From: Planctomycetota bacterium
GTDB taxonomy: Bacteria > Planctomycetota > Phycisphaerae > UBA1845
Assembly (NCBI GenBank): GCA_043806315.1
Contig: JAZDHF010000266.1
Span: 7,560 to 71,559, forward strand
Length of the DNA: 64,000 bases
Reading direction: 5' to 3'
Shown: in pieces, positions 8,313-49,901 of the stretch
Position numbering within the stretch: position 1 is the first letter of the stretch
Layout of the letters: every line of letters begins with the position of its first letter
The notes under the pieces: generated by a model
Database searches by the model: none
The model's input: the letters and a program-made list of their open reading frames with translations, nothing else
Told to the model about the DNA's origin: nothing
Translations under genes and position numbers: made by a program

Positions 8313-8322
8313 ACAAGCGAAA

Positions 8323-9473: not shown

Positions 9474-9475
9474 GG

Positions 9476-30392: not shown

Positions 30393-31792
30393 ACATTCAC
30401 CACCAGGGTGACGTTCTCTCCGCCCTGTTCCTTGTAACTGAAGTATAATCTGCCATGTTTAATCGCCATGCAGGCCCACCTTTTCTCTTCCGGGTCGGCG
30501 CTGCGGACCGGGTTCACTACGCCAGTCCCGCTCTGCCACCCCTTGAAGATCGGGTCCACTCGCTCGGTGATCTTGGTGGAATGGTCTCCATCGAAACGGT
30601 AAAGCCCCTCTCGTCCTTGGAAGTAATCCGCCCCGCCGTAGGATGCCCAAGCCCGGCGTCCGATAAGGCCCGTGTCGGAGTTGGTTTGCTCCAAGGTCCC
30701 GTCGTCCAGGTCTCCAACGAGTCGCCAAATCGAGTTCTCCTTATAAATGACGATCATGCGAGGGTGCAACGAAATTGCGACAACTTCCTCGTTCAATTCC
30801 CCTACGTCCGCCCAGTCCCCCTCGAAGTCGGAATTGGACCCGCGGAAGTACCACGGCATCGTTGCCGGCGTCCACCAGATCCGGTTCGGGTGAAGAAAGG
30901 AGCACGCCGCTATCAGGCGGTTGTTGTACGGCCCCGCCAAGATCTGCGCCGGCGGAGGCGGGTCGTGATCCTCTTCGAGCAGATCCCCCTGCTCAATCGC
31001 GATGGAATCGGTAACGGTCCCGTCGTCCACCCAGGTGGTCGTCGTGTTGTCGGAGATGGTGTGGACCCGATAGGGAGCCGGGAGCATCCCTCCGCTACGG
31101 TAGATGTGCCGCTTGTCAACCTCCCGGTTTAGGGATATAGGAATGTTCATCAACGTTGCGCTGAACGGATTGACCGGATCGATTATTTCCGGCGTTGGAC
31201 CCATTGGGTTCGATTCCTTGCCCTCCGCCGTATCGAACGTAGCGTAATATGTAACGGTTCCACCAAGCGTTCCTGCGGCCGGGGTTCCGTAAGCGTAAAA
31301 CGGACCCGCCGCTAAAATGAACGTGGTACTTGGAAGCCAGGGATAGAAAGAACCCAGAGCTCCTGGAAGGGCATAGGCCCCGCCCAAACTTCCATCGTCC
31401 CGGCCCTGTTTGATGTTGTCCACGATCCAAAGCCATCCGTCGTAGGAAACGGCACCAAACGGAAACCCGCTGAACTCCACGGGGTCTCCGGACCACGCAT
31501 CGCGCTTGATTTCGGCCATAGCGTCGCTCGCTCCGGCTTGGAAGAGGCGGTTTCCGGCGCCCACGTACCGCCATTTGGAGCCGATACCCTCTCCGCTGAC
31601 CAGAATCAGGGTATGAATGAACGCGTCCAGGGAGGACATTACTCGACTCATGCCCTCGCGCGAGCGAAGGTTTCCGACCGTATCCGCCCGCCAGTTCTTG
31701 GCACATTGAGCGCCATCCGGGGGGATCAGATCGGTTGGCTGGGTCAGGTGGAGGCCGCCGGAGAGGAGTTTTTGCGTCTGGACCTTAAACAT
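30389..31792 (-). CDS. structural protein (467 aa), beta-propeller-like
   Basis: Start chosen at ATG 31792 (AGGAG 8 nt upstream). The ORF is open to 31831. ATGA overlap with the downstream gene. Confidence 0.75.
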   Translation of the reverse strand: MFKVQTQKLLSGGLHLTQPTDLIPPDGAQCAKNWRADTVGNLRSREGMSRVMSSLDAFIHTLILVSGEGIGSKWRYVGAGNRLFQAGASDAMAEIKRDAWSGDPVEFSGFPFGAVSYDGWLWIVDNIKQGRDDGSLGGAYALPGALGSFYPWLPSTTFILAAGPFYAYGTPAAGTLGGTVTYYATFDTAEGKESNPMGPTPEIIDPVNPFSATLMNIPISLNREVDKRHIYRSGGMLPAPYRVHTISDNTTTTWVDDGTVTDSIAIEQGDLLEEDHDPPPPAQILAGPYNNRLIAACSFLHPNRIWWTPATMPWYFRGSNSDFEGDWADVGELNEEVVAISLHPRMIVIYKENSIWRLVGDLDDGTLEQTNSDTGLIGRRAWASYGGADYFQGREGLYRFDGDHSTKITERVDPIFKGWQSGTGVVNPVRSADPEEKRWACMAIKHGRLYFSYKEQGGENVTLVVNV

Positions 31793-31814
31793 CGCTTGAC
31801 TCCTGGTATACAAT
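31786..31814 (+). promoter_or_regulatory. candidate promoter TAAACA-17-TACAAT for the plus-strand cassette (leaderless)
   Basis: The -35 is at 31786-31791 and the -10 at 31809-31814. The ATG at 31821 lies 6 nt after the -10. Confidence 0.4.
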
Positions 31815-31820
31815 GGGGGC

Positions 31821-32024
31821 ATGGAAAGCAAGACATCGCTTCCAGTTCAGTTTCGCCATGCGGACTTCGGGCCGGTATTCGTCATTCCCAAGGGCCGCGA
31901 CGCCAAAGCCAAGAGACTCTACAAGTTCCTGAACTGGTTCTTTCGGAAACACAGGGTCCAATACGAGCGCGAAGTTTCCGGTCGTCTGTCCGATCAACTT
32001 CTTTACGGTGGAAGGAAGGGCTAA
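31821..32024 (+). CDS. opposite-strand small basic protein (67 aa)
   Basis: Codon-3 GC is 16/20 in 31861-31920 for this frame, against 12/20 for the third-codon phase of the competing minus ORF 31785..32342 and 9/20 for the remaining phase. Confidence 0.55.
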   Translation: MESKTSLPVQFRHADFGPVFVIPKGRDAKAKRLYKFLNWFFRKHRVQYEREVSGRLSDQLLYGGRKG

Positions 32025-32345: not shown

Positions 32346-32977
32346 CCCGCGAACGCCTGTTCGTAGATCCCCTGAACGTCCCGGCAGAACTTCGCCGCCT
32401 CGGGCATCGACCCATCGGATTCCTTGCCGCGCGCCTCCGCCACCATGCGAAAGAACAGCCAGTCGGCCACGGCGGATGGCATATCGGGTTCGGTTGCCAC
32501 CGCCAGATCCGTCGGGTACTCGTGATGGAGAATCGCCAATACTTCGACGCCGTTGGGAATCTTATACAGACGGATGGTGGTCGTTCCCGAAACATCCTGG
32601 CAATACCGGGAAGGTGTTCCCGCCCCCATGCAGGCGTCGGTGGTCCATGTAGCCGACAGTGCCTCCAGTTCCCGTACATTGACCGCCCTGAGCGACCGCC
32701 CGCCCAAGGTGACGTGAATGGTCGATAGGTGGCGGGTGGGCAGTACGTAATCGGTCGTGCCAATCCCGGTAATGTTCGCGGTATCCCGCTCGACCCACAT
32801 GGCGAATCGGCGTGCCAAGTCCCGTTGCCCCTGGTTGGCCCATTCGATCAACTCGGCTTCGGTCCAATGGATCAGGTTGGCCGCGTCTTCGGAGTTCAGG
32901 CAGGGATAGACCTCCGCAACCCAGTCGCCCAGCGTTCTGGAGGCCGCCGGGCCTCCACCCATAAACCAAAAGATCAT
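32324..32977 (-). CDS. hypothetical virion protein (217 aa)
   Basis: ATG at 32977 (ATGA overlap with 32974..34260). The track ORF extends to 33235 inside the upstream gene. Confidence 0.65.
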   Translation of the reverse strand: MIFWFMGGGPAASRTLGDWVAEVYPCLNSEDAANLIHWTEAELIEWANQGQRDLARRFAMWVERDTANITGIGTTDYVLPTRHLSTIHVTLGGRSLRAVNVRELEALSATWTTDACMGAGTPSRYCQDVSGTTTIRLYKIPNGVEVLAILHHEYPTDLAVATEPDMPSAVADWLFFRMVAEARGKESDGSMPEAAKFCRDVQGIYEQAFAGYWGART

Positions 32978-34260
32978 GGCGTGATCTCGTAACCGTGAAG
33001 CGTGATGTCCGCAGTGAATCCGGTCCCAGAGGTATACTTCAGGATGTTGTCGGCGGCAGCCGAAATCCAGGGACGGATGAACGACTGGGTGATCTGATCC
33101 GCCACGGCCCACGTTCCCGCGAGAATCGTAGTTGCGGCTGTGTTGGTCCCATCGAAGAGAGTACAAGTCCCTGCGGTGATGACCTTCATGAATATGTCGG
33201 TGATGACGAATTTCTTGCCCGCCGCCGGGTCCCAAATCGTCACACCGGTTTGCGAGGCCACCAACGCCAGGAAGGTCGAAACACGTGTCTGGTCGCCGTA
33301 GGCCGGGGCGGTCAGGACGGGAGCCGTCTGCGTCCCGAGTTCCACTGCCGCCGCGCTACGAAGGGTGACCTCAAGAGGGTCTGCCGCAGTCGCCAATTCC
33401 GTTCCGGCGGCGTTGCGCAAGCAGACCTCGACCGGATCGGCGGCGGTTCCAAGTGCCGTCCCCGCCGCATTCCTGAGACAGACCTCGACTGGGTCCGTCG
33501 CCGTCCCGAGTTCCGTCCCGTCGTTCATTCGCAAATTGACATGGATCGCCCGTTTCGCCGTGATGCGAGCGATACTGGCCTGATCTTCGGTCGGGTCGCC
33601 AGCCAAGGTTTCGTTGTACACGCCGCCGATCACCTGGAGCTTCGTCGTGCCCTCGGTGAACCCGGTCTTGTCCTGCTGTCCCACTCCGATAGCCACAGAC
33701 TGAACCACATCCACCTTCATGGCCTTGACCGCAGCGACGGTCGAGATGCCCACTGTGTCGGTCCCATCGCTAACCTTGACCGGCCATCCGTTCGCCACTG
33801 CTGCCGGAGTGCCCTGGTTAGCCGTGACCATGCCGTCCACGGTAATGACGTTCCCGCCGTCGTCGATGGACAGATTCCCGCCACCGTCATCAACTGACAG
33901 CGTGGTGGAGTTGTCGGTCACCGGCAGGGCCGTGATCGGCGCCGCGCCATCGGACAGGCGCACGAAGACGGGTGTGGATACAGGCGCGTCTACCGTGAGT
34001 GAACCGGCGTTGTCGTCTACCCCCAAGGCCCCCCCGCCGTCGTCCACGGACAAGGTGGTGGAGTTGTCGCCAACCTGGACGACGCCACCGACCCGCGTCA
34101 CGTCCACATCCAAACCGTAAGTAGCGTCGGCTGGGATTAGGGTTCGGATTCCCTCCGCGCTGATCGCGAGTTTCACGACCTGAGCGTGCGAGGAATCGGC
34201 GACGATTTGATCCGTGCAGGCGGATGCGCCAGCGCCGGGCGTGAGACTCAAATTATCCAT
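32974..34260 (-). CDS. repeat-containing virion surface protein (428 aa)
   Basis: GGGGG SD 5 nt upstream of the ATG. DNSTTLSVDDGGG occurs twice, and there are four 19-aa tandem repeats. Confidence 0.75.
   Translation of the reverse strand: MDNLSLTPGAGASACTDQIVADSSHAQVVKLAISAEGIRTLIPADATYGLDVDVTRVGGVVQVGDNSTTLSVDDGGGALGVDDNAGSLTVDAPVSTPVFVRLSDGAAPITALPVTDNSTTLSVDDGGGNLSIDDGGNVITVDGMVTANQGTPAAVANGWPVKVSDGTDTVGISTVAAVKAMKVDVVQSVAIGVGQQDKTGFTEGTTKLQVIGGVYNETLAGDPTEDQASIARITAKRAIHVNLRMNDGTELGTATDPVEVCLRNAAGTALGTAADPVEVCLRNAAGTELATAADPLEVTLRSAAAVELGTQTAPVLTAPAYGDQTRVSTFLALVASQTGVTIWDPAAGKKFVITDIFMKVITAGTCTLFDGTNTAATTILAGTWAVADQITQSFIRPWISAAADNILKYTSGTGFTADITLHGYEITP
33307..33534 (-). repeat. 4 x 19-aa (57-bp) tandem coding repeat LR-x-x-x-G-T-x-L-x-T-A-x-D-P-x-E-V-C/T
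   Basis: aa 243-318 of the 428-aa protein, read from the translation: LRMNDGTELGTATDPVEVC / LRNAAGTALGTAADPVEVC / LRNAAGTELATAADPLEVT / LRSAAAVELGTQTAPVLTA. Confidence 0.75.
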
Positions 34261-34438: not shown

Positions 34439-35123
34439 TCGGTCTCCTTACGTCTTGTTTCAAAGCGCGGGAAAGGTCCGTCGTGATGGTTTCCGCGGGG
34501 ACTGTGTCGTACCGCAGATCGAGGCTTCGTGCCCGAACGTAACGAGCGGCCTTTCCCGCACACTCGATGAACCGTTGCATCAGGGGCAGCGCGCTTTCCA
34601 ACGCCTGCCCGCCTTCCTTCAACCTGAGAAACGGGATCGCCGCCTCGATCAGGTCAGGATGATATTGTTCGGGGATCTCTGGGATGTCTCCGTTCGCCGA
34701 CATTACGACTGGAGTCCTCGCGTAGATCACCGCCAACGAGGTTCCGGGGGCCGCCGGATGACGATAGACCGCGAGCGAGTCCAACCCCAAGTGGACGTAC
34801 CGTTCCACCGTGCCCTCCACCGTTTCCCAATAGCAATTCAACGCGGCCAGTTGAGCGACGGTGGCGGGTCGGATCTTGGAGGTTCCCAAGTTCACCCGCA
34901 ATGGAACCAACCAATCCGGGAACGTGTCGCGCATGTGATACCACGCCAGCGCCGCAGTCAAGGGCAGCGCCCCGGTCGTTTCGAGACATAGCGATAACAG
35001 GACGAACAACCGTTGCGAGCGATTCAAGGCCGCAGAAACTTCAGCCGAAGAATAGTAACCCGTTCCGTCGTCCGGTTCGTCCAGACGTTGCCACACTTCG
35101 GTTCTTAGCGCCGATAGAGTCAT
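34413..35123 (-). CDS. hypothetical virion protein (236 aa), adaptor/connector-like by position
   Basis: ORF with an ATGA overlap with the upstream gene. Confidence 0.7.
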   Translation of the reverse strand: MTLSALRTEVWQRLDEPDDGTGYYSSAEVSAALNRSQRLFVLLSLCLETTGALPLTAALAWYHMRDTFPDWLVPLRVNLGTSKIRPATVAQLAALNCYWETVEGTVERYVHLGLDSLAVYRHPAAPGTSLAVIYARTPVVMSANGDIPEIPEQYHPDLIEAAIPFLRLKEGGQALESALPLMQRFIECAGKAARYVRARSLDLRYDTVPAETITTDLSRALKQDVRRPTTLAVTNA

Positions 35124-36130
35124 GGCAATTGGAACGGGAACGATCTCGCCACTCCACGCAGTTCCCGATGGCGCGCGAATCTATCCGCCATCCGGATCTG
35201 AGCGGCGGGCATCTTGGCGCATTCCGCCGCCAGCATTTCATTCGCTCCGCGAAGGTAGGCAGCCTCGGCGCGGTCGGCTCCCGCGTAGTCCTTCTCTTTG
35301 AATAGAGCGTCCGCCGTCACGCCGGCGTAGAGAACGTCCGGGTTGACCCAAGACGGAATATAACCGTCCGTGTCGGCAACGTCGAACATCGCAGGGTCCT
35401 GAAGATACCAGTAAGGCAACGCCATGACCTCGATTGGAACCGGGTGAACCTCGACCTGTTGCTTCTTTGGACTGCTCCTATCGTCCATGTGCGGGGCGTA
35501 GCGCAGCGGGTTCCCGGTAGAGACTCTGTTCGGGTCGATGGCATCCAACTCCTCCATGCTGACTCGATCCAATGGGCGACTCCGTCCGGGGCATCGCATA
35601 CCCAGGAACTCGCGGCAGTCGGCGGGCAACGGAAAGATATTCCGCCAGATGGAGTAGGTCGCTAGAAGGTTGGTCGCGCCTTCGTAGTCCCGGTCCAGAA
35701 ACCCGGCCCCCGGAGCGGAGTAGATAAACTCGTAGTAGGCCGAGTCGTTGCCGATTCGGATGCTACACCCATCCATATCGGATGTCCAGACCGTCGCGGT
35801 CCCCTCGATGCCATCGCCGCCGAGAGTCGCAGCAACCGTTCCAGAGGTGTACTGCGCTACGGTCGATATGGCATCCTGGATCTTCGTCTGCTGCCACGGG
35901 ATGCGCCGGGCAATACGCCGTAGGCGTTCGTTGATGAAACTCTGAAGGATATCCGGGTCAAGTCCGGAGTGTCGTTTCTGGCACTGAAATTGGAATTCGC
36001 CGAAGGTCGGATTTTGAACGCTCACGATCTTTCCTCCTTCACTGATTCGCCAATCCCCCGCATCACAAAAGCGCCCATTATTGAACCACGGCTCCCCGGC
36101 GGCGGGCGGTTGAGGTTCATCCCCCGGCAA
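35120..36130 (-). CDS. hypothetical virion protein (336 aa)
   Basis: ORF in the structural operon. Confidence 0.7.
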   Translation of the reverse strand: MPGDEPQPPAAGEPWFNNGRFCDAGDWRISEGGKIVSVQNPTFGEFQFQCQKRHSGLDPDILQSFINERLRRIARRIPWQQTKIQDAISTVAQYTSGTVAATLGGDGIEGTATVWTSDMDGCSIRIGNDSAYYEFIYSAPGAGFLDRDYEGATNLLATYSIWRNIFPLPADCREFLGMRCPGRSRPLDRVSMEELDAIDPNRVSTGNPLRYAPHMDDRSSPKKQQVEVHPVPIEVMALPYWYLQDPAMFDVADTDGYIPSWVNPDVLYAGVTADALFKEKDYAGADRAEAAYLRGANEMLAAECAKMPAAQIRMADRFARHRELRGVARSFPFQLP

Positions 36131-36171: not shown

Positions 36172-39100
36172 TCATTCCACCTTCACCGTCATCGGCGCAC
36201 CCAACGAGACCCGCGCCAAACCTGCCGTGAGGTATTCGACGAAAACCGGATGATTCCCCTGCCGGGCGTCCATATTGACTTGACAGGGGGAACTCGAACA
36301 GGTCGTGATTGTTACTTTGCCTGAGGGCGCCGTTGAGGTGAACTTCGCCAGCGTCGCCCCGGCGGGCATGAAAAAGCCGAACTGCATCGCCCGCACGACT
36401 TCCGGCGCCACTCCACCCAACCTCACCGCGGGCCATTGGTGGGCCATTCCCATGCCAAAGAAAAAGCCGGTCCATTTATACGCGCCCAAGGAAACATCGG
36501 AGTTCTCATCGCGGACATAGTTGCTGTCCGAGTAGACGCCGCCGGTCGTGTAGGGCGGGTAGCCCCAGACCGAGCCGTAGGCGGTATCGCCCCAGCTCTG
36601 GACCGTGGGCGTGGGGACCGCCTCGTACTGCGCTCGCAACGCCGAGGACGCCTCCGCCGTCAGCACCCGGCCCGCGCGGATGGAAGCCGGATTCAAGCCG
36701 TAGTTGCATCCGACCTGCCGGAACTCGAATGCCGTCCCCGGCGGCGAGGTGACGTAGGGTTCGCATTGGTCGAACACCCGTCCGTAGTGCAGCCCCTGAG
36801 TCTCGGGATCGTATCCGGTCGAGTAGATCCACGCAGCGGCCAGTGGAAGCAACGCCGCGTAACCGGAGGAGATAGTTGGGTCGTCGTTCTGGCTGGCCCA
36901 GGTGAAGGCGTGCGTTTTCACCCCGAGCATGAACGGCTGCTGACCTCGGCCAGCGATGCCGTTAGCGCCGTAGACATAGATGTGAGACGTAGTGGAGTTC
37001 GCCCCGTCCCAAGCGCGTTGGAGCGTGATTTGAATGGCGCTATCCAATCTGCACACCCAGTTCTTCGCTAACTGCGCGCTGTCTTGGCTCTCTCCAATCG
37101 TCGCAACTCCCCCGAAACTGTCGATCATCCAGGTGATCGAGCCGGTGTCGCCAGGCCACAGTGCGGACAGGGTTAGCGGGCTGGATGTTCCGGTGTATTT
37201 GTAGAACCCCGTGTAAGGGGAACCGCTCCGCGTGCCGGTCACTGCGATCATGTTGCCGGAAGTGAAACCGCTGCCCGTGAGCGTTGCGGAAGCGCTAGTT
37301 GCGCTTCCCGTTCCGCTGGCGGTCACTTTGCATCCTGTATTCGTAGCGGTCAGTCCAGTTCCGGCGGCCGTCGCGCTGCCGTTTGTTAGTGTAAGATGTG
37401 GACTGGCGTTGTTCCATAAGGAGGTCGCCCACGAGTTGTCCGTCTGTTTGCAGTTCTGATCTCGCGTCAGGACGGCGGTTAGACTGGCCTTCCAGGCTGC
37501 GCGTTTGGTCGCGTCCGGGTCGAAGTTCGCTCCCAACGTGAGGGCCGCGGCGAGGTACCCGCTGTCCCTGGCGTCGTAATCGTAGCATCCGGCCGCGCCG
37601 ATCGCTCCACCCGCGACGTAGGGCCGCACATCCCCCCAGCCGATCGGGGCGGATGAGTTAAGCAGGACGTTCGCAATCGCGCCAAGGGCGCCCCCGCCGT
37701 AGTTCAGCGGAGACCCGCCTGGGTTGGATACCTCCGGGTTGCGAATCCAGTTGTCGTCCATCTCGTTGGCGGCGGTTAGGGCAGAAGTCAAGCCCGAACG
37801 GTAGTAAAGCGCCCGGTGCGCCAACCCTTCGCCATAGAAGTTCGGGCCGTATGAATTGCGGTACCCAAGGCCGTCCACGAAGGTGTAGGTCTTGCCGGAG
37901 AAGGTGTCGTTATCCAACCCGCCGCCGTATTCGATTCCCGGCTTCCCATACGCCGCCGTCTCGGATTCGCAGCCAGTCGCAAGCACCAGGGCCTTCGTTT
38001 CGCTGGCGTCCACGCGGGTGTAACCGAGACCCCAATAGCGGGTGCTGACTTGAACGATCTTATAGGTGAATGTTCCGGCGTCCGCATCGGCTGGATAGGC
38101 GCGGGCGAGCGTGATGCTGGTGGCACCGCCGACCGAGGAGACATAGGCCGCGAACACAAACGGCGTCCCTACGGCATGAGTCGCGGCGACGCGCAGCCAA
38201 ACCGAACTCCCCCCGGTGACTCCGTTTGCCGTGGTCCAGACCGTTCCCACGCCGGTAACCGCCGTCGAGCCGGGTGTCATCGTGACGGTTCCCGTGGAGT
38301 AGGGCACTCGCCCCGCGGGACCGTTTGCGCCCGCTGGACAGATCGGGACCGCGGCATCGGTCAGGAATGTCGTGGCGGTCCCAGTGACGCGATACTGACC
38401 TATGTATGTCGTCGTGGCGGTCCAAGCCTGCGCGTTCTGGCCGCGCCCGTCGTAACAAACGGTCAACGTGTTCCCGGAGGCGGAGCAGACGCGGACCTCC
38501 TCGGTGGTATAAGACTGCTGACAACCCGTACTGCCCGTTCCTAAACAGATACGCACCGGCGTCCCCGGAAGACCGGCAAGATCCAGTTTCGTCGCGTCGG
38601 CCACAACGATAGTCAAGTCCGTTGCGTTGATGGTTGTTGCCAGGGTGGTGTCGGCGGTTCCAATGCTGCCGACCCCGGCAAGAATGAAACTGACCGTCCC
38701 GGCGCCGTCGTGGATGAAACTCGGGTGGGCAATCGAGTACCCGTTTCCAGCCACGGTTTCGTAGACGGCTTTCCGTAAGGTGGTGGCCGCCAGCGCCCGC
38801 TCGTCCGCGTAGCCCCAAGGGTTCCGCCCATAGGCGATCATCGGACCGAAGATCGAGTCCACGTTCGGATCGGCGTTCACCACCACACCGTTGTCGTCGG
38901 TGGCAACCGCTCCGATGTGGGCGGTTCCGGTTCCCATCTGCCCCGCCGGGTCGGTGACTTGAAGTTGAATAAGGTAGTCCCCGAATACCAGGCCAGTCAG
39001 CGTCGGAGTGCCACTAGTGCGGCTGGACCATAATGGAACAGACGGGCCGCTAAGGCTCTGCCAGAAATAGATGACGCCCGCGCCCGCGTCGCTTTGGCTG

Positions 39101-39855
39101 TAACTCCCGGACCCGTCCAACTGGCCCGCGTGTCCCGCGCGAAGACTGACCGTATTCGTCCACGATGGGGCGCCGTAAGTTTTCAGTAGTGGGAACACGA
39201 GCGTCTGACCGGGCGTGGCCGGGTACGTTGCAGACCCTCCGCTCAGGGTAGCGGTGTACCCGTTCCCGCTGGAGTCGGTCAAGCCACCATCGAACTTCCA
39301 CTCCAGCAGATCGCCAGTATCGGCGGTGACTGGCGGGCGGGAGTTCGTATCGGCCAACGACGTAAACAGACGCGTATACGCCGTACTCATAGCTTCGCCC
39401 GCGCCTTGGACCCACGCTCCATTACCGTTCGAGCCGGAGTGTCCCGTGTACTGCTGGATCGTCCCGACGAACCTCGTTCCGTTCACGTCCCATGCTTCGC
39501 AGCGGGTCTGCAATGTGGCGTGGTCGATCTGAAAACGATACGAGAAGAACTTGCTAGGTAGCGCTGATAGATCGATCCCGCAAAAACTCCCGCCCGTCCC
39601 TCGTGTCCAATAAATCTGGTAATACAGCGCCCCGGCATTGTTCTTCGCCTGAATGTCGATTCCGCAGGCTGCAACATCCGCCGGATGCCCCGGAGTCCAA
39701 TTGTCGGTCCAGTCGTGAATGGACTGCTCCAACCGGCAGGGGGTCTCGACGGCCTGCGCCACGACGGAGGTGTTCTCGGCCTTGGCAGCGGTGACCCGAA
39801 GCGACTGGCCCGCGAACGCCGTGAAGGCAACCAAGAACAGAGTTAGGGGTCTCAT
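36172..39855 (-). CDS. large multi-domain receptor-binding/depolymerase-like protein with signal-peptide-like N-terminus (1227 aa)
   Basis: Start at ATG 39855 (ATGA overlap). N-terminus MRPLTLFLVAFTAFAG-QS. It contains a LamG-like segment (LLEWKFDGGLTDSSGNGYTA) and a PKD/Ig-like segment (VIYFWQSLSGP...LQVTDPAGQ). Confidence 0.75.
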   Translation of the reverse strand: MRPLTLFLVAFTAFAGQSLRVTAAKAENTSVVAQAVETPCRLEQSIHDWTDNWTPGHPADVAACGIDIQAKNNAGALYYQIYWTRGTGGSFCGIDLSALPSKFFSYRFQIDHATLQTRCEAWDVNGTRFVGTIQQYTGHSGSNGNGAWVQGAGEAMSTAYTRLFTSLADTNSRPPVTADTGDLLEWKFDGGLTDSSGNGYTATLSGGSATYPATPGQTLVFPLLKTYGAPSWTNTVSLRAGHAGQLDGSGSYSQSDAGAGVIYFWQSLSGPSVPLWSSRTSGTPTLTGLVFGDYLIQLQVTDPAGQMGTGTAHIGAVATDDNGVVVNADPNVDSIFGPMIAYGRNPWGYADERALAATTLRKAVYETVAGNGYSIAHPSFIHDGAGTVSFILAGVGSIGTADTTLATTINATDLTIVVADATKLDLAGLPGTPVRICLGTGSTGCQQSYTTEEVRVCSASGNTLTVCYDGRGQNAQAWTATTTYIGQYRVTGTATTFLTDAAVPICPAGANGPAGRVPYSTGTVTMTPGSTAVTGVGTVWTTANGVTGGSSVWLRVAATHAVGTPFVFAAYVSSVGGATSITLARAYPADADAGTFTYKIVQVSTRYWGLGYTRVDASETKALVLATGCESETAAYGKPGIEYGGGLDNDTFSGKTYTFVDGLGYRNSYGPNFYGEGLAHRALYYRSGLTSALTAANEMDDNWIRNPEVSNPGGSPLNYGGGALGAIANVLLNSSAPIGWGDVRPYVAGGAIGAAGCYDYDARDSGYLAAALTLGANFDPDATKRAAWKASLTAVLTRDQNCKQTDNSWATSLWNNASPHLTLTNGSATAAGTGLTATNTGCKVTASGTGSATSASATLTGSGFTSGNMIAVTGTRSGSPYTGFYKYTGTSSPLTLSALWPGDTGSITWMIDSFGGVATIGESQDSAQLAKNWVCRLDSAIQITLQRAWDGANSTTSHIYVYGANGIAGRGQQPFMLGVKTHAFTWASQNDDPTISSGYAALLPLAAAWIYSTGYDPETQGLHYGRVFDQCEPYVTSPPGTAFEFRQVGCNYGLNPASIRAGRVLTAEASSALRAQYEAVPTPTVQSWGDTAYGSVWGYPPYTTGGVYSDSNYVRDENSDVSLGAYKWTGFFFGMGMAHQWPAVRLGGVAPEVVRAMQFGFFMPAGATLAKFTSTAPSGKVTITTCSSSPCQVNMDARQGNHPVFVEYLTAGLARVSLGAPMTVKVE

Positions 39856-40946
39856 CGAATGCTTATCCCCCTGTGCCGCGTCGCCCCAGTGCCGGCGTAG
39901 GTTTCCCACGTTCCACCTCCGACCCAGAAGGTGCTCGGGTCGAATTGGTTGTTATACTCGGCTAGAATCCAGTCGGCGGAACGGACAATGGAGGAAAGGC
40001 ACACCTCGTCAAGAATGGAACCGCTTGCCATCGGATAAGCCGTATTACCCCGATTAAGGAGTTGCCCTGTAGCGCTGAAAGTTGAAAAGTGCGTAGTGCC
40101 AGTTGTTCCACTTGGCGCACCATTGATGTAAAACTGTGTAATTGTACCATCGCTGGTCAAGACGACGTAGTAATATCCGGTTACAGAGATGGAACCAGCG
40201 GCGCTCAAAGCTCGGTTGGTATAATTTCCGCCGAACAAGTGAGTTCCATTGTCCACCATTATCTCCATCGAATCACCATCGCTCGCGTAAATGGAGATAA
40301 TCCCCTGATAACTGGCTACATCGGCAAAATGTACCCAAGCCGACAGCGTTAGCACATTAGAACTAAATAAGTTAGCTGGTAATGTTATTTGTTGCGTTAC
40401 CCCACTAGACTGCGCCCCACCGTCAACTTTCCCCGCAACTGCCGAAGCATTAACTACTGTGCCATGCTTAGCATTCGAAGTTGAATCCAATGCGCTCAGT
40501 GTCGTCCCGTTCGGCAAGTGCCACACCCCTAGGTAGTTCGAGTTCCAGACGCCGGTTATGTTCTCCTGGCTGGTGGTGACGGAAGCGTTTCCCACGAAGA
40601 TATATGTCAAGGTATTAGCCAAGTGGGAAACCGAAGGTTCTCGAACCCAGACGCAGAACTCGCCCGTCGCATGGTCGTACCGCTCGATCTCGTGATCCAA
40701 CCTCGTGTTTCCAGGAGCGTCGCTGGTGAGAACGATGTCGTAGCCGTTCAGATCCGTCGCGTAGCCGCCATGAGAAGTGTGGGCCAGGGCCGCATCCGTT
40801 CGGCAATAGAGCGCCGGAAAGTTCGCGTGCGTCGAACTGCCCACCTTGGTGTAGTCGATAGCATCGGTGTAGCGATAAGTGTACCCGTTGCCCCAGGCTC
40901 CCCAGCAGGGAAGGGCCAGCAACGCAAGGATGAGGAGTTTCGTCAT
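39852..40946 (-). CDS. DUF2341 plus LamG-like fibre protein with signal-peptide-like N-terminus (364 aa)
   Basis: Start at ATG 40946 (ATGA overlap). N-terminus MTKLLILALLALPCWGAWG. DUF2341-like pattern NFPAL...GYDIVLTSD...LDHEIERYD...GEFCVWVREP...TYIFVGN, then a LamG-like HLPNG...SAWVHF. The DNA is markedly AT-richer. Confidence 0.75.
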   Translation of the reverse strand: MTKLLILALLALPCWGAWGNGYTYRYTDAIDYTKVGSSTHANFPALYCRTDAALAHTSHGGYATDLNGYDIVLTSDAPGNTRLDHEIERYDHATGEFCVWVREPSVSHLANTLTYIFVGNASVTTSQENITGVWNSNYLGVWHLPNGTTLSALDSTSNAKHGTVVNASAVAGKVDGGAQSSGVTQQITLPANLFSSNVLTLSAWVHFADVASYQGIISIYASDGDSMEIMVDNGTHLFGGNYTNRALSAAGSISVTGYYYVVLTSDGTITQFYINGAPSGTTGTTHFSTFSATGQLLNRGNTAYPMASGSILDEVCLSSIVRSADWILAEYNNQFDPSTFWVGGGTWETYAGTGATRHRGISIR

Positions 40947-43900
40947 GGCAGTTGGAAGATCAGCGTCACGATCAGTCCCTTGGTCCCCGTCCCGGCCACG
41001 TCCACGTCCACGCGGATAATCTGATCCGTCGCCACATCGTCCTTGGTCGCATCGATCACCGCCGCCGCCGCCGCGCTGGTCGTCGAGTTCTCGTTGATGT
41101 CGATGGTCATTCGAGTCGAAAGCATGTCGTCGCCCACGCCCGAGCAGGCGTTTCCAGTGGCGGCGTAGGCGCAACGAGTGATCTGGACGGTTGGCACGCC
41201 CGACGTGCTGGCGGTGATGACTTGCGCCTTCACGCCCACCAGGTTCATCCCGTTCAGTCCCGGTGGAACTACGGAGTATATCTTCCCGTCGCCGGTGGCA
41301 ACATCGTCGATTGGGCCAAACACTTCCAGTTGAACCGTCCTGGTGCCGAAGATCGTGGAACCAGCGAGGCCGTCCGGCGTCACTGCGAGCGCAGCGGAAC
41401 TCCCCGCCGTCGTCTGAGCGGCGTTGGCAAACAGGGGCGTGCTCACCAGTTCCTTGAAGGCTCCCGCTGCCGTGTCCAGTGCGGCATCGTAAGAAATCGC
41501 GTAGTCCAGACCCGCCAAACAGGCCATGCTGGTCGCGCCATCGGCACCGAATAGTTTCTTCGCCCCGAGCGTGTCGATGTTCAGGGTCGCCGGAGTCCCG
41601 GTGCAGTTTACGTCGGGCCGGAACTTCAGGGCCATGCCGTTTGTGTAGGCCGTCAGGACGGGCAGCAACGTCGCAGTGAAGACCGTTCCACTGGCGCTGG
41701 CTGGGATCGCCACCGTGTCCGTTCCCGCCTGCCCTTGCGCCCGCGAAAGCATCGTGGCGGTATCGGCGCTCACGGTGGGGTTGCCCGCTTGGAGGTCGCC
41801 ATTGACCACGAGTATCCCGGCGCCGGCTTCGAGCGTCCGGCTGACAGTCGTATTGACGGCGACGCGACCTACCATCCCGTTTGAGCCAGGGTCGCCAAGC
41901 CCACCGCCGCCCCCAGATCCACCGCCTCCGCCGGGATACCAGTACGTCCCGTCGAAGACAAGGGAGAGCATTTGGTTCTGAGCAACCGTCTGAGTCTTGG
42001 CGATACGTCCGGCGCCGGACCCGCCCGTGGCCACGCCACCTGGCGCGGCGTTGGTGAACACCAGCGCGATCTCCCGCCCGATCCACCCTCCCGTGATCTT
42101 GGTTACGGTGGTCGTTCCGGTGACTTCGAACGTCGGGTTCATCGGCGCGGCGATGGTGGCTCCCGAGGCGACGGTGCCGATCACGTCGTCGATGCCCTGA
42201 TTCTCGCTGAGAACAACCCGAGTCAATGCCCCGCCAACAACCAAAGGAGCCGTGTCGTTATTGTACAGGGAGTTTCCAGAGATCATTCCATCTGTAAGCG
42301 CACCAGCAATGACAATTCCATACTTCTGGTGGCCGGTACCTGTTGTGTTATAAATCGGACAGTTTGTGACTTGCACTCGCGTAGCGCCGTCTACGATCTG
42401 GACGGCCCCTATCGCCGCAGTGTTGCTAAGGTTGTTGTCAGTAATCGAGACGCCATTGATTCTGATATATCCAGTGCCCGCATTCTGACCGATCCAAAGA
42501 CCGTTGATGCTGCCTCCGGCTATCCATCCCCCTGTGAATTCAATGTCGCCGGCGTTGATCGTGGGTCCGTAAGCGATTGCCACTACGGGGCCAACCGCCG
42601 GGAAAGTAAGTCCCTGAGAGTGGAAATGGCAGTCGTTGAACCGTATCCCGCCAAACGCCCCGGTTCCTGCAATCGTAAGGACGTAACTGCGTGCGCCGTC
42701 CACTTGGCAACCAACGAACTGAAGGTTTACCGTATAATCTGGCGTAACCGAAGTAACTGCAATCCCCGTATCTCCGGCGAACCCAGAATTGGTGACCCAG
42801 ACTCCATCTGCATTGTTGATGATGATTCCGTATTGTAGGACGTTTGCATTCGTAAGCGGATAACCAAACGATAGACTTCGATTAATGTAAGTATTCACAG
42901 CCATTCCAGTAATTTGAATACCGGAGATTGCCTTGTAGGTCATATCCCCGTTCATATACAGGAAATCGTCGATGTTGGAGAAACTGGTGCCGTTCAGGAA
43001 AAGCCCATACCTGCCATTGAAAATCTGCACGTTGGACACCCTGGCCGTCGTGCCCGTATTGTAAAAGATCCCCGCTCCGCTCGTCGGGATGTTGTTTCCT
43101 CCGTGGATCGACAGATCCCGAAACCAAACCTCCTTACCCGCGCCCGAAATGAAGAACATATCGCCGGTAGTAAAGTCGGATGCTCGTTGGACCATCCACC
43201 CGCCAGGACCGTGACCCTCGATAGTAATGTTCTTGGAAATGGTAACTGGAGCGTGAAAGTAAATAGGACCAGTGGCTTCCCAGTCCGGTATGGCAATCCG
43301 AATTACCGCTGGCTCTCCTGACGCCTGCACCGCCTCCTGAATCCCTCCCGTCGCGCTGGCGATGTTGAATGCTCCGCTGTGGTTATAGACTGGAATGAAT
43401 GTGATTGTCCCTGTTGGGTCCCCGGCGTGACCCGCGCCCCCCGTGATGAGAACCGCCTCCGCCGTGCCGGTCCCCCCGGAGATGTAGAGGTAGTGCGCCG
43501 CATCGTCGTGGTTCACGCCCAACGGCATTGGCGTGAGCGTCACCGTATTCGGCGCTCCGCCGTTCAGGGTCCCGCCCGGAGTCTGCGCGGCGAAGTTATA
43601 ACGCGAAACCGAAGTAGCCAGGGTGGTCGCCATCCCAGTGCTCACCACGTCGCCGGTCAGATTCCCCGTGATGCTGGCGGCACTGCCGCTTGCGTTTCCC
43701 GAGAGAGTCGCGGTAAGCGTGCCCGGAACGGTCAGGTTTTGAATCGTGGCGGTTTGGGTTCCCAGGACATAACTCAGGCCGGAGTCTCCGCCGAAGGCCC
43801 CGACTTTATTGAACTGGACGTTGCCGTTCGCTCCGCCCGGAGCGGTAGCCGATCCTCCGCTCAACAGCGTCCAGGTGTCTAGCGACGTGCAACCGAACCA

Positions 43901-44233
43901 GTTCTGACCCGCCGCCGCGTCGGTGTCGAAGAAGACCTGGCCGGGGACGCAAGCCACCGGCGCCGTGACTCCCGCCTTGTGACTGATCGGATGCCAAGCA
44001 TAGGAGGCTACGCCGGTCTGGACGCACTCCCAGAGTTGGGTAGGCACAGTCGCCGGGTTACCCGTCTGGAGATAGTAGGAGTTGACTTCCCCCGAGGCGT
44101 CGCAGGAGGCGGCGGTCGGGGCGGCGGTCCCGTAGGCCGTGATGCGTCCGCTCGCCCCGAACACCTGCGCTCGAATCGGAACCGCCGCCAGCGCCAGAAG
44201 CGCCGCCAGAACGATGAATCTAGGCATGGTCAC
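40943..44233 (-). CDS. tailspike, right-handed beta-helix (pectin-lyase-fold) depolymerase-like, signal-peptide-like N-terminus (1096 aa)
   Basis: N-terminus MTMPRFIVLAALLALAAVPIRA-QV. Beta-helix rungs NITIEGHG, LSIHGGNN, VSNVQIFNGRYGLFLNGT, GIIINNADGVWVTNSGF. Confidence 0.8.
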   Translation of the reverse strand: MTMPRFIVLAALLALAAVPIRAQVFGASGRITAYGTAAPTAASCDASGEVNSYYLQTGNPATVPTQLWECVQTGVASYAWHPISHKAGVTAPVACVPGQVFFDTDAAAGQNWFGCTSLDTWTLLSGGSATAPGGANGNVQFNKVGAFGGDSGLSYVLGTQTATIQNLTVPGTLTATLSGNASGSAASITGNLTGDVVSTGMATTLATSVSRYNFAAQTPGGTLNGGAPNTVTLTPMPLGVNHDDAAHYLYISGGTGTAEAVLITGGAGHAGDPTGTITFIPVYNHSGAFNIASATGGIQEAVQASGEPAVIRIAIPDWEATGPIYFHAPVTISKNITIEGHGPGGWMVQRASDFTTGDMFFISGAGKEVWFRDLSIHGGNNIPTSGAGIFYNTGTTARVSNVQIFNGRYGLFLNGTSFSNIDDFLYMNGDMTYKAISGIQITGMAVNTYINRSLSFGYPLTNANVLQYGIIINNADGVWVTNSGFAGDTGIAVTSVTPDYTVNLQFVGCQVDGARSYVLTIAGTGAFGGIRFNDCHFHSQGLTFPAVGPVVAIAYGPTINAGDIEFTGGWIAGGSINGLWIGQNAGTGYIRINGVSITDNNLSNTAAIGAVQIVDGATRVQVTNCPIYNTTGTGHQKYGIVIAGALTDGMISGNSLYNNDTAPLVVGGALTRVVLSENQGIDDVIGTVASGATIAAPMNPTFEVTGTTTVTKITGGWIGREIALVFTNAAPGGVATGGSGAGRIAKTQTVAQNQMLSLVFDGTYWYPGGGGGSGGGGGLGDPGSNGMVGRVAVNTTVSRTLEAGAGILVVNGDLQAGNPTVSADTATMLSRAQGQAGTDTVAIPASASGTVFTATLLPVLTAYTNGMALKFRPDVNCTGTPATLNIDTLGAKKLFGADGATSMACLAGLDYAISYDAALDTAAGAFKELVSTPLFANAAQTTAGSSAALAVTPDGLAGSTIFGTRTVQLEVFGPIDDVATGDGKIYSVVPPGLNGMNLVGVKAQVITASTSGVPTVQITRCAYAATGNACSGVGDDMLSTRMTIDINENSTTSAAAAAVIDATKDDVATDQIIRVDVDVAGTGTKGLIVTLIFQLP

Positions 44234-44574
44234 CCCTTCAGGTGCGCCGCCACCAAAGTAAGGATACGGTTGCCCCCTTGGTTGACCGGCACGCCCGTCG
44301 TACCGCTTCGGACCTTGAGATACTTGATCCCCGCGAATTCGGACACCGGCATGACGATGGCCCGAGATACGGCGGTTGCGACGGAGTACTCCGTACCGCT
44401 GGCGTCGTACAGGTTGTTGTAGGTCACGTTGTCGTCGCTGGACTGGAAGGTAATAACGGCGGCGGTCCAGGCGGCGGGCATGTCGATCCGCGACAACGTG
44501 CCGGAACCCAGATAGACCGCCGCCGACAGACTCTCGCCGTTCAGAATGGTCGCGCTGATGATGTTATTCTGCAT
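44230..44574 (-). CDS. hypothetical small beta protein (114 aa)
   Basis: ORF with an ATGA overlap with the tailspike start. Confidence 0.65.
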   Translation of the reverse strand: MQNNIISATILNGESLSAAVYLGSGTLSRIDMPAAWTAAVITFQSSDDNVTYNNLYDASGTEYSVATAVSRAIVMPVSEFAGIKYLKVRSGTTGVPVNQGGNRILTLVAAHLKG

Positions 44575-44622: not shown

Positions 44623-45639
44623 TTACGCGCCGGTTACCGGCAACATCAATCCGGAACCAGTCGTTGCTACCGGGACACGCCCGCTGGTGTAGACGATGCC
44701 CGAAATGCCGGCCGCAGTCTCCCAGTTGAGCGCTCCCACGTAGGAGCAATTGTCCAGGATGATGTACGGCGAATGCCCCCCGGCGGTCACAGCCAGAGCC
44801 TCCAACATGGTGGCTCCGCCGGCGGCGTTGGTCCCGACGTTGAGGAACAGGCAGTTCCGGAACAGAAGCATCCGGTCGTGACCGGCAGATCCACGTCGCA
44901 GGAAGTGGTGGGTATTCGCCCCGGCCCACGTCAAGATGAGACAGTCCTCAAAGACGTTGCGGGTGGCCAATATCGGACCCGTCAGGGAACCGCCCATGAT
45001 GATCTCGGCGTTGTCCGCCGTCCCGCGCGTGATCGTGTCCAGTCCGATGGTGCAACCTTTGAACAGGTTTTCCGAACCCGACAGATACAGACTATAGGCG
45101 TCTGCGATGTCGTTGTTGTCGTGTCCGATCCCGGCGATATGGCAGTTCACGAAGACGTTTCGGTCTCCGGTGACCTTCAAACATCCGGTTGGAAGCGTTC
45201 CCGCCACTCCGGCGTAGAACCCGATGTTCTCGAACCGGCATCCGTCCGCGCTGACGGTGAACAGGTTGCTCGCCGTATCGTAGGTCGAAGCGAATGCGAT
45301 CCTGGACCGATGAGATATCCTCGGCCCGGCGTTCACGCCGATCAGGTGGACGTGATCCTTGGCCCAATCGAGGGTGGCCGATAGATAGTCGGTACACCAG
45401 TACGTTCCGGCGACGTTTCCGCTGGCGTTTCCTTCGGCGTACAAATAAACCACGTCGTTCTGGTTGGCTGTCGCCAACTGCTGCGCTTTGAGCGCCGTCT
45501 TGAGCGAGTGAGTTATGGAGCGACCCTTGTTCCCGTCCAACCCCGTTCGGGGCTTGACGTTAAAGACCTTCCCCTGTGTGTGCATGAACGGGCCGATGAA
45601 CAGGTTGGCCTGGCAAATGTCGAGGTTACTGAGTCCCAT
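44623..45639 (-). CDS. beta-helix protein directly downstream of the capsid gene (338 aa)
   Basis: Repeated N-x-F-x-x-C rungs: NVFVNCHIAG, NLFKGCTIGL, NVFEDCLILT, FRNCLFLNVG. Confidence 0.7.
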   Translation of the reverse strand: MGLSNLDICQANLFIGPFMHTQGKVFNVKPRTGLDGNKGRSITHSLKTALKAQQLATANQNDVVYLYAEGNASGNVAGTYWCTDYLSATLDWAKDHVHLIGVNAGPRISHRSRIAFASTYDTASNLFTVSADGCRFENIGFYAGVAGTLPTGCLKVTGDRNVFVNCHIAGIGHDNNDIADAYSLYLSGSENLFKGCTIGLDTITRGTADNAEIIMGGSLTGPILATRNVFEDCLILTWAGANTHHFLRRGSAGHDRMLLFRNCLFLNVGTNAAGGATMLEALAVTAGGHSPYIILDNCSYVGALNWETAAGISGIVYTSGRVPVATTGSGLMLPVTGA

Positions 45640-45700: not shown

Positions 45701-46630
45701 TTAGGCGCCGGGCGTTCCGACCAGTCCGAGGTAATCGGACCAGCCGAACGACTCGGCGTACCACATTGCCGTCTTGGCACTCCGTGTGTCGAAGTCCACG
45801 TCGTGCAGGGTATCCGGTTCCTCGCGCTGGTAGTGCCGGAGTTCGCTGTCCTCCGGCGCGCACACGACGAACCAGGCGTCCGCGTCGGTCAGATAATCCC
45901 AGCACCAGAAGTCGGTGAAGGCCGGGAAACCGTCGCGGTACTGAAGCGCGTTCACGGCTCGGTTAGCCGTGTCGCTACGGTCGCGGGACTTCAGAACTTC
46001 GCCCGCGGTGAATTCCAGGTCGGAGGGGACGACCAGAGCGCGCGGCGGGATTCTCACCCGCTTGCCGGTCTGGTCCTTCATCTGTCGCATCAAGGTCAGG
46101 ATCAGGCGCAGGCTGTCGTCGTCGAAGTCGGCGGCGGTGGCCAGGATGTTGCTCTGAGTCCCGCCCGTGTAGACCTGCGGGTGAGTCAGCGAAAACAGCG
46201 CCACGCCGTCCGGACCCGCCGTCGCGCCAGCCGTAAACCCGTTGTTGAACGTTGCCGCGTGCGCGAGTTCGCGGGTCTCCTTGGCGCTCTTGCCGAGTTC
46301 GGTCGCCATCCGCTTGATGATGCCGAACTTGTCGTCCCGGATCAGTTGGTGTGAGGTCTTGAAACCCTTCGCGTAATCCAGGTGCGTATAGGTCTTGTCG
46401 AACAACTGCACCGGCTGGTCGTAACTGACCGCCGCGCCTTCGTTCAACGTGGTGAACAGTCCCATCCCGCTGATTCCGGTGGTCTGTTCGTTCGACCGGC
46501 TAGATGTCATCTGCCGGAAAATGCGCTTCCACTGGTCGGGGTATTGGCCGAACTTGCCCATGATTACCTCGTCCAGCATGGGAAGCATCGTGGTGAGTTG
46601 CGTGTCGGTGTACTGAGCTCTTGTCATCAT
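45701..46630 (-). CDS. major capsid protein (HK97-fold type, 309 aa)
   Basis: Position after the scaffold and decoration-like genes, typical size, and a sequence that reads like an HK97-family MCP by eye. Confidence 0.75.
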   Translation of the reverse strand: MMTRAQYTDTQLTTMLPMLDEVIMGKFGQYPDQWKRIFRQMTSSRSNEQTTGISGMGLFTTLNEGAAVSYDQPVQLFDKTYTHLDYAKGFKTSHQLIRDDKFGIIKRMATELGKSAKETRELAHAATFNNGFTAGATAGPDGVALFSLTHPQVYTGGTQSNILATAADFDDDSLRLILTLMRQMKDQTGKRVRIPPRALVVPSDLEFTAGEVLKSRDRSDTANRAVNALQYRDGFPAFTDFWCWDYLTDADAWFVVCAPEDSELRHYQREEPDTLHDVDFDTRSAKTAMWYAESFGWSDYLGLVGTPGA

Positions 46631-49647: not shown

Positions 49648-49901
49648 TACTTACCCCCCTCTTTCAACTGCTCGGCGATCTCTTCTATAAGGATACGCGG
49701 GGCCTGCAAAGCCAACCTCAGCCCATCGCGTTTCCCTCTAGCTTCCCGCACCACGTCCCAGTTCGGGGCCTTGTGCTCCTCGTCGGCGGCGCGAAGTTCC
49801 AGCGACTCCAGTTTGCGGACGATCAGCGCCCATCCCGCACTGGCGAGGACCTGTTCGAGGTGCTGGAGTTCGATGGCGGTGGTGCGGATCGGCAGGTTCA
49901 T
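49647..49901 (-). CDS. hypothetical protein (84 aa)
   Basis: ORF with an ATGA overlap with the portal stop. Confidence 0.6.
   Translation of the reverse strand: MNLPIRTTAIELQHLEQVLASAGWALIVRKLESLELRAADEEHKAPNWDVVREARGKRDGLRLALQAPRILIEEIAEQLKEGGK

Follow-up and report, generated by a model that had tools for sequence, protein, structure and literature searches.

We have analysed a stretch of 64,000 nucleotides (positions 7,560 to 71,559 of contig JAZDHF010000266.1, hereafter the window), which is deposited as part of a Planctomycetota bacterium and carries a podovirus-like phage with all of its late genes on the minus strand. Six of its genes start with sequences resembling secretory signal peptides, and three of the six form the block 36172-44233, which encodes a tailspike-type depolymerase, a protein with DUF2341 and LamG domains and a protein of 1227 residues. 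In our preferred reading, to which we assign a probability of about 0.6, the six N-termini would be genuine cleavable Sec signals processed by signal peptidase I (SPase I), and the block would constitute an exported cassette for the attack of polysaccharides, in which a tailspike-type depolymerase would have gained its signal peptide. As part of this reading, the signals would be tuned to a preference of the host for Gln at the position following the cut (+1). The signal-bearing tailspike and its breadth within the family represent a real and apparently undescribed variant. The literature searched describes no tailspike with a signal peptide. A first-pass annotation of this DNA had rightly regarded exported fibres as unexpected.

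Signal peptide-like N-termini in a late operon

The first-pass annotation had pointed to six open reading frames (ORFs) starting with the n-h-c layout of a signal peptide, which we have verified, together with their N-termini, on the minus strand (36172-39855, 39852-40946, 40943-44233, 17113-18270, 15503-17116 and 12443-12844). Signals were called throughout by a heuristic n-h-c rule of our own in combination with comparative evidence and not by a trained predictor. All six N-termini contain a Lys or Arg within the first two to five residues, an h-region of 10–18 uncharged residues rich in Leu, Ala and Phe, and a small residue at position –1 of the predicted cut. In five cases the cut precedes a Gln (IRA↓Q, FAG↓Q, AYG↓Q, GYS↓Q and ALG↓Q, with the arrow marking the predicted cleavage), whereas 39852-40946 reads GAWG↓N instead. 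By this heuristic, small residues at both –1 and –3 are clear in AYG↓Q, GYS↓Q, ALG↓Q and AWG↓N, while the –3 position is occupied by Ile in IRA↓Q and by Phe in FAG↓Q, for which the alternative AFA↓GQ is canonical. Applied in strict form to 372 six-frame ORFs of at least 60 residues, the rule flagged six, four of which are among the described genes, and the other two escaped it for the sole reason that their ORFs are listed with a start further upstream. As a background, 11 of 655 stop-free Met-started 45-mers from all frames (1.7%) are signal-like, with the ending [AGS]↓Q in only four, and in a gene-by-gene hydrophobicity scan the six genes stand out among the late genes of the minus strand. 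With the layout found in 6/6 genes against a background rate of ~1%, the signal-like N-termini are far above chance in the DNA of the window.

The tailspike ORF opens with a GTG at 44233, and the hydrophobic segment lies inside the protein irrespective of whether translation starts there or at the ATG at 44227. The latter is the most likely start, since it is preceded by the Shine-Dalgarno-like motif AAGGGG and coincides with the start called by NCBI for a protein of 1094 residues beginning with MPRF. Shine-Dalgarno-like motifs are also located upstream of the signal-encoding ATG of 36172-39855, 17113-18270, 15503-17116 and 12443-12844. The translational coupling described in the first pass is borne out by ATGA overlaps at 40946/40943, 39855/39852 and 17116/17113, the first two of which couple 39852-40946 at both ends, and by the 44233/44230 junction, which is either a GTGA overlap or a gap of 2 nucleotides. 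Around the cassette, sites resembling promoters or terminators are no more frequent than by chance, which places it within the late operon. An in-frame GTG is found at codon 24 of the tailspike gene (44158-44160, minus strand), directly past the predicted cleavage site (AQ/V), and initiation at this position would give a signal-less cytoplasmic isoform, which raises the possibility of dual initiation. None of the other five genes contains a start codon near its predicted cleavage site.

Other types of secretion-related segments were considered and rejected. A lipobox ([LVI][ASTVI][GAS]C) of lipoprotein signals processed by signal peptidase II is absent from the six N-termini; only in 39852-40946 does the h-region come with a Cys close to its end (LALPC), with Pro at –1 and a family consensus of GAWG↓NGY. 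A Pfam scan gave no C-terminal domain of type IX secretion system (T9SS) cargo. Signal-arrest-release (SAR) domains were dismissed in view of cores that are rich in Leu, Phe and Ile and followed by cleavage motifs, in proteins that are not muralytic.

A signal-bearing tailspike and its family

By its predicted fold, the protein encoded by 40943-44233 (minus strand; 1094 residues from the ATG at 44227) is a tailspike-type depolymerase. It starts with a predicted Sec/SPase I signal peptide (44168-44227, minus strand) of the sequence MPRFIVLAALLALAAVPIRA, which is followed by QVFG and contains a helix at residues 3–13 in a model obtained with AlphaFold2 (AF2). The N-terminal module of the mature protein (residues ~21–165; 43733-44167, minus strand) combines two Cys-pair repeats (C42/C68 and C93/C113) with a fibre-like NVQFN..GAFGGDSGLSY segment, and a right-handed β-helix would form the catalytic or receptor-binding body (41933-43630, minus strand). 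The model is confident over residues 200–765 (pLDDT >90), and its best matches in a Foldseek search of the PDB are the phage tailspikes or depolymerases K64-1 S2-4, CBA120 TSP3, Sf6, Det7 and LKA1 gp49 (probability 1.0, E ~1e-5). A sequence search of the PDB gave no match, and homologues of the protein carry the Pfam domain Beta_helix. Part of the β-helix body is a conserved entry domain of ~90 residues (YNFAAQTPGG...HYLYISGGTGTAEAVLITGG...GIQEA, residues 210–300).

In a sister phage from Hainich groundwater (L001), which shares 87% identity with the window in the major capsid protein, the order of genes is the same, with a gene for 114 residues, a signal-bearing spike and a further signal-like gene. 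Its spike (P0004) shares 60% identity with the tailspike over residues 1–197, signal included, and is unrelated in the remainder. The comparison of orthologues proposed in the first pass thus finds the signal kept at the protein level (MRRIFVLAVLVALAGTPVAA, again followed by QVFG), and the tailspike follows the pattern of conserved anchor and swapped head that is usual for such proteins. Known tailspike depolymerases, including the P22/Sf6 gp9 type, the CBA120 TSPs and capsule depolymerases of Klebsiella phages, share the same right-handed parallel β-helix, the same modular build of a conserved N-terminal and an exchanged distal part and a gene placed close to the adaptor among the structural genes. 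However, as far as found, these known proteins have no signal and assemble in the cytoplasm, whereas the spike of the window and ~40–50% of its family are signal-bearing, and a further difference concerns Cys pairs, which in this family are largely restricted to the signal-bearing forms. Papers on RcGTA and VarioGold, followed as potential precedents for signal peptides on tailspikes, were false leads.

To scan genomes, we used a 95-column alignment of the entry domain, since a full-length alignment of 28 tailspikes was too divergent to serve as seed, and found the domain in 170 IMG/VR loci. Signals are present in 37 of 75 tailspike homologues from databases, mostly with the ending A/G/S↓Q and with Gln at +1 in ~28 of the 37, and in ~22 of 59 classifiable IMG/VR spikes. 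Judged by sequence, ~40–50% of the family would carry a Sec-type signal, in most cases ending in A↓Q, and spikes with a signal are encoded among the structural genes of at least two podophage lineages that are unrelated to each other. Signal-less homologues begin with MATPTPVFPxxIATD, where signal-bearing ones read ..CAQ↓TAKFPTAIATD, and the predicted mature end thus coincides with the N-terminus of the signal-less forms.

The presence of a signal is linked to the Cys content of the protein. Within the entry domain, two residues vary together, being either V/A or C/C, and the C/C pair is found in 10 of 13 signal-bearing compared to 2 of 25 signal-less IMG/VR spikes (Fisher p = 3e-5), with doubtful start positions in both signal-less exceptions. 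In the database set, the corresponding numbers are 10 of 19 and 3 of 26 (p = 0.006). The density of Cys is 1.49 per 100 residues in signal-bearing and 1.01 in signal-less homologues (p = 5e-5), the ratio of even to odd Cys counts is 28:9 in the former and 20:18 in the latter, and further Cys pairs of the N-domain were, by eye, seen solely in signal-bearing forms such as P0018, P0011 and P0016. Cys pairs that track the signal are what oxidative folding in the periplasm would predict. Where the spike has a signal, ~8 of 16 loci contain further signal-bearing ORFs, compared to 2 of 12 where it has none, a difference that is only suggestive of export status as a genome-wide trait.

Two observations extend beyond Sec signals on phage proteins. 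In two IMG/VR spikes (L058 from ~6802 and L062 from ~9485 onward), twin-arginine-like N-terminal extensions (MADPTRRDLLFAPALALGS and MNPTRRSLLVAPALALGS) are located upstream of the MTPTFGK start used by relatives and may serve these members of the family as Tat-type export signals. A 275-kb contig of Terriglobales (L006) encodes at 6789-10226 a signal-bearing homologue of the entry domain with 1145 residues, whose flanking ORFs contain, by eye, no obvious phage genes, and the family may also be present as a cellular secreted protein.

Host-type secreted proteins in the same block

The block had initially been described as a run of tail-fibre genes, which holds for the tailspike-like 40943-44227 but not for the other two genes, since 36172-39855 belongs to a cellular secreted family and 39852-40946 matches a domain that is fused to this family in a host protein. 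The protein of 1227 residues (36172-39855, minus strand) contains a PKD domain and starts with the predicted signal MRPLTLFLVAFTAFAG, followed by QSL. It is related end-to-end, over 90–100% of the length and with 40–81% identity, to 314 homologues on contigs of up to 752 kb, and every named homologue is from Bryobacteraceae or Bryobacterales. In four cellular loci the homologue resides amid glycosyltransferases, Wzx, Wzy, PIG-L, polysaccharide deacetylases, acyltransferases and a PEP-CTERM protein. A signal is present in 99 of 120 homologues, with Gln at +1 in 86 of the 99 and a typical ending of ..AG↓QSL, to which the protein of the window conforms (AFAG↓QSL). The family shares a K319L-like PKD domain and, in an alignment of 40 sequences, nine invariant Cys besides near-invariant ones. 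The copy in an exopolysaccharide cluster of Bryobacterales (L093) is 65% identical to the protein of the window, and a 68% identical copy is found in a different phage-like contig (L094); the latter and the copy of the window are both in a phage context and not in a cluster for polysaccharide biosynthesis. The conservation of the signal throughout the family indicates that it is ancestral and came with the gene, which, as judged from these homologies, would have been captured, signal included, from exopolysaccharide loci of a Bryobacterales-like host. The ATGA coupling of these genes, which had been taken as argument against the insertion of host genes, does not exclude it for 36172-39855, given its 65% identity to the copy of the exopolysaccharide cluster.

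An AF2 model of residues 321–1227 (pLDDT 92) contains helical-repeat and β-sandwich domains, whose weak PDB matches are α/α-toroid glycosidases and a glucuronyl C5-epimerase. Among viral models, Foldseek found one real match, an uncharacterised protein of an uncultured phage, and a sequence search of the PDB detected the PKD domain only. The genomic context suggests an activity directed at polysaccharides.

The protein encoded by 39852-40946 (minus strand, 364 residues) starts with the predicted signal MTKLLILALLALPCWGAWG, followed by NGYTYRY, and matches the Pfam families Laminin_G_3 (3.8e-15) and DUF2341 (2.5e-5). Its residues 16–158 are 44% identical to the C-terminal DUF2341 part of a Bryobacterales protein of 1999 residues (P0190), in which this domain is fused to the 1227-residue family in a single chain. 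The LamG family includes signal-bearing (..GAWG↓NGYTYRR) and signal-less (MAYTYRR..) forms, and signal-bearing members adjoin signal-bearing spikes in L066 and L083 and are found on the same contig as the spike homologue P0002. Two of the three genes of the block thus encode host-type secreted proteins, which provides an ordinary explanation for their signals.

Directly upstream of the tailspike gene and coupled to it, 44230-44574 (minus strand) encodes a signal-less protein of 114 residues, for which family searches gave no match. It is found at the same position in L001 (74% identity) and L066 (31%), always just upstream of signal-bearing genes. The downstream neighbour of the cassette encodes a head-to-tail adaptor of the SU10 type (35120-36130, minus strand; Pfam SU10_adaptor, 3.5e-8). 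The same succession from the 114-residue gene via the signal-bearing genes to the adaptor is found in L066, whose adaptor is only ~30% identical, and in related phages the adaptor gene adjoins the tailspike gene irrespective of whether the spike is signal-bearing or signal-less.

Host of the phage and Gln at the predicted mature N-terminus

The tailspike of the window is identical to NCBI entry MFH1110991.1 ("MAG: hypothetical protein [Planctomycetota bacterium]"), which is encoded on a contig of 72,369 bp. Among the representative genomes of GTDB, the spike entry domain has only six matches, all in Acidobacteriota (three Bryobacterales, two Ca. Sulfotelmatobacter and one Terriglobales), and wherever a relative of the spike domain, the 1227-residue protein or the LamG protein is named, it belongs to Acidobacteriota, mostly Bryobacterales. 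Because all named relatives of the three proteins are acidobacterial, the host is probably a member of Acidobacteriota and not of Planctomycetota as the NCBI label has it. The label probably reflects a binning artefact, and this soil or groundwater phage probably infects Acidobacteria. Searches of GenBank phages by tblastn with portal and tailspike found no match to the phage, and scans of IMG/VR with the single portal or tailspike protein or with a two-sequence capsid alignment gave no relatives.

In four host loci (L089, L091, L092 and L093), secreted proteins of Bryobacterales mostly contain Gln after the predicted cleavage, including unrelated proteins with the ends ..AAG↓QTE and ..SAAA↓QTR. 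This resembles the Q-rule of Bacteroidetes, where Gln at +1 of SPase I substrates is cyclised to pyroglutamate, and which is matched by a Gln past the predicted cut in 5/6 proteins of the window and in most signal-bearing homologues. Unlike in Bacteroidetes, the homology of the window proteins points to Acidobacteriota, a phylum outside of the survey of the rule, which covered Bacteroidetes, Chlorobi, Spirochaetes, Chlamydiae and Cyanobacteria. From the sequences of these host proteins, the rule may extend to Bryobacterales. Phages of P. gingivalis also encode signal-bearing proteins obeying the Q-rule of their host (PMC10367356; PMC10653852), which are of unknown function and, unlike the spike of the window, not tailspikes.

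Further signal-bearing proteins and general features of the phage

Two of the remaining signal-bearing genes are coupled to each other downstream of a gene for a giant protein of 2229 residues (18272-24961, minus strand). The latter has no PHROG match, is located where podophages encode internal or ejection proteins, and its stop codon is followed after one nucleotide by the start of the first signal-bearing gene. This gene (17113-18270, minus strand) encodes 385 residues with the predicted cut ..CATAYG↓QEFGSTNATRIRG and a Cys pair in both of its two repeat modules. The repeat module matches the C-terminal end of the L002 Phage_stabilise protein (58% over 79 residues), and the sequence directly past the predicted cut is similar to the mature N-terminus of the L066 tailspike, which is also signal-bearing (QAFGSANANRIRGR). 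The second gene (15503-17116, minus strand; ..LLAGYS↓QVSRG) encodes a LamG and BNR/sialidase-like protein of 537 residues with six Cys in its mature part, which matches Laminin_G_3 (5e-14) and, weakly, BNR_2 in Pfam, virion structural protein families in PHROG (1e-21 and 3e-19) and the carbohydrate-binding protein 6n1a in a sequence search of the PDB (1e-17).

The lysis cassette on the minus strand includes a lysozyme-type endolysin (13428-14666), a holin-like ORF of 79 residues with two transmembrane segments (TM; 13187-13426), an i-spanin-like ORF of 83 residues with a TM and a coiled coil (12852-13103) and, at its end, the sixth signal-bearing protein (12443-12844, 133 residues, ..AALALG↓QTRD). 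The latter had been listed in the first pass as sharing the feature of the fibre genes; its signal-like N-terminus stands, and at this place a periplasmic protein is unsurprising. It may act in the periplasm as a factor of lysis or of the envelope. Its position after the i-spanin-like ORF would fit a canonical o-spanin, an assignment that we rejected in light of its 133 residues and the lack of a lipobox Cys. At its N-terminus the endolysin lacks a hydrophobic segment, and its Phage_lysozyme match is split (residues 12–85 and ~351–409) by an insert of ~265 residues that starts with Cys, ends with ..SHN/C, shows a weak LAGLIDADG match and looks like an intein from its sequence.

Other genes identified on the minus strand encode the large terminase (52047-53792), a portal-sized protein (49898-52042), a major capsid protein of the HK97/Mu-gpT type (45701-46630) and tail-tube or nozzle-like proteins (30389-31831 and 28089-30392). 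Directly after the major capsid gene, 44623-45639 (minus strand) encodes 338 residues with nine Cys, no signal and no family match, which by eye have the look of a short β-helix and are a candidate for a signal-less fibre or decoration protein. A protein of 334 residues with an acyl-CoA N-acyltransferase-like C-terminal part is encoded within the structural module (26762-27766, minus strand), and an acetyltransferase gene is found at a comparable place in L002. The window contains a single tRNA gene, for tRNA-Pro (TGG; 8238-8313, minus strand).

Discussion

Of the three explanations offered in the first pass, export of the proteins, as opposed to an ordinary assembly in the cytoplasm, is best supported by our analysis. 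In the mechanism that we envisage, the genes would be expressed from the late operon, and the proteins would be exported by Sec with cleavage of their signals. Disulfides would form in the periplasm, where the newly exposed N-terminal Gln may cyclise, and the proteins would attack the polysaccharide layer of the host from outside the cytoplasm and be released at lysis. Several points weigh against this reading. We infer the export and cleavage of the six proteins from their sequences. The conservation of the N-terminal module between sister phages with a swapped distal part and the adaptor-side slot shared by signal-bearing and signal-less spikes both speak for a part of the virion rather than a free enzyme. 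The statistics relating Cys to signal take no account of shared ancestry, and in the tailspike of the window itself the two covarying positions are occupied by M/G instead of C/C, and its Cys total 11, an odd number. Gln at +1 has been published for Bacteroidetes only, with a handful of host proteins as basis in Acidobacteria, and Foldseek gave no PDB match to the model of the 1227-residue protein at E ≤ 0.001.

It is conceivable, though distinctly less probable, that the tailspike, and perhaps the proteins of 385 and 537 residues, stay components of the virion after export. The spikes would then be cleaved, disulfide-bonded and trimerised in the periplasm and dock onto DNA-filled, spike-less particles only once the holin has opened the inner membrane, in the brief interval in which cytoplasm and periplasm form one compartment that is still enclosed by wall and outer membrane, or else following the burst. 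In its broad form, which we regard as equally tentative, a sizeable group of soil and groundwater podophages of Acidobacteria would export, cap and then mount their spikes, thereby hardening them for soil. Such late assembly is favoured by the N-terminal 165–200 residues, which are 60% conserved between sister phages with unrelated spike bodies, by an N-domain (FPxxIATD..RGFDGT..WHHN) common to signal-bearing and signal-less spikes, by the position of both types beside the adaptor gene and by the ORF list of L010, where, read by eye, no other large fibre-like ORF is found near the adaptor in 20 kb. An endolysin without export segment and a holin-like gene with two TMs would fit a large-hole holin, which would let particles and periplasmic proteins mix, and the tailspikes of P22 can join spike-less heads in vitro. 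However, the literature searched gave no precedent in tailed phages, the window offers signal-less fibre-like candidates for the actual receptor-binding proteins (44623-45639, 32974-34260, 10747-12441 and 9476-10750), the conserved N-module could instead serve trimerisation or anchoring in the envelope, and two of the three genes of the block encode host-type secreted proteins with no link to the virion.

The other alternatives are far less probable. Hydrophobic N-termini that stay uncleaved as structural or assembly helices of cytoplasmic fibres, acting as tail anchors or becoming membrane-active at infection, would agree with the cytoplasmic assembly of tailed phages and with the coupling to structural genes. 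We consider this explanation, which had also been raised in the first pass, improbable, as homologues without the segment start exactly at the predicted cleavage point in two families, the small-x-small↓Q ends match those of secreted host proteins, Cys pairs track the segment and the hydrophobic cores are rich in Leu and Phe, unlike SAR domains. Comparably improbable, and if anything slightly more so, are morons of lysogenic conversion, secreted proteins expressed from a prophage that remodel the host surface and block superinfection with no role in the virion. Secreted Q-rule proteins have been reported in prophages of P. gingivalis (PMC10367356), the 1227-residue gene is host-derived and homologous spikes are found on genome contigs of Acidobacteriota. 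These observations are countered by the ATGA/GTGA overlaps with neighbouring late genes, promoter and terminator motifs that are not in excess, a third-position GC content (GC3) of the block like that of its neighbours and the arrangement of 114-residue, signal-bearing and adaptor genes maintained in L066 despite the divergence of its adaptor; no integrase was noticed in the window, whose early genes were not systematically annotated. Finally, true starts could be located downstream, the hydrophobic stretches being untranslated read-through of ORFs, which in DNA of 60% GC often run upstream of the true start, and the in-frame GTG of the tailspike lies right past its predicted cleavage site. 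We give hardly any credence to such an artefact in light of the Shine-Dalgarno-like motifs and stop/start overlaps at the signal-encoding starts, the conservation of the signal at the protein level in orthologues and ~100 cellular homologues, and the other five genes, where no start codon is found near the cleavage site.

The export of a polysaccharide-attack cassette, which we continue to favour, combines features of several known systems. PslG, AlgL and BcsZ are periplasmic or secreted glycan-processing proteins encoded in exopolysaccharide clusters, and the cellular homologues of the 1227-residue protein are likewise signal-bearing and located within clusters for glycosyltransferases, Wzx/Wzy, deacetylases and PEP-CTERM proteins. 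In contrast to these proteins, the one of the window has no sequence or significant fold match to them and resides in a late operon of a phage. Lom and Bor of phage lambda are secreted or outer-membrane morons in late operons, and thus similarly signal-bearing, host-interacting proteins encoded among tail genes. Unlike the proteins of the window, which are large, enzyme-like and coupled with no autonomous signals detected, these morons are small proteins with transcription signals of their own, and it is in lysogens that they are expressed. With SAR endolysins, the proteins share the use of host Sec by a late phage protein via an N-terminal hydrophobic segment. SAR domains, however, are weakly hydrophobic, rich in Gly, Ala and Ser, uncleaved and found on muralytic enzymes, whereas the cores described here are rich in Leu and Phe and end in small-x-small cleavage motifs, and the endolysin of the window has no such segment.

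For the window itself, our results point to the capture by a phage of a signal-bearing gene from an exopolysaccharide cluster of its host and to a host in Acidobacteriota, in conflict with the Planctomycetota label of the NCBI bin, and they provide a hint that the preference for Gln at +1 may hold in Bryobacterales too. The morphogenesis of tailed phages is taught as wholly cytoplasmic. If the exported spikes are free enzymes, phages would release oxidatively folded depolymerases alongside their virions, which would clear the slime of a prolific producer of exopolysaccharide. If the spikes stay on the virion, they would be added to particles outside the cytoplasm, in a new final assembly step for tailed phages. 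Either fate of an exported spike, as free enzyme or by late docking, would be new for the biology of depolymerases.

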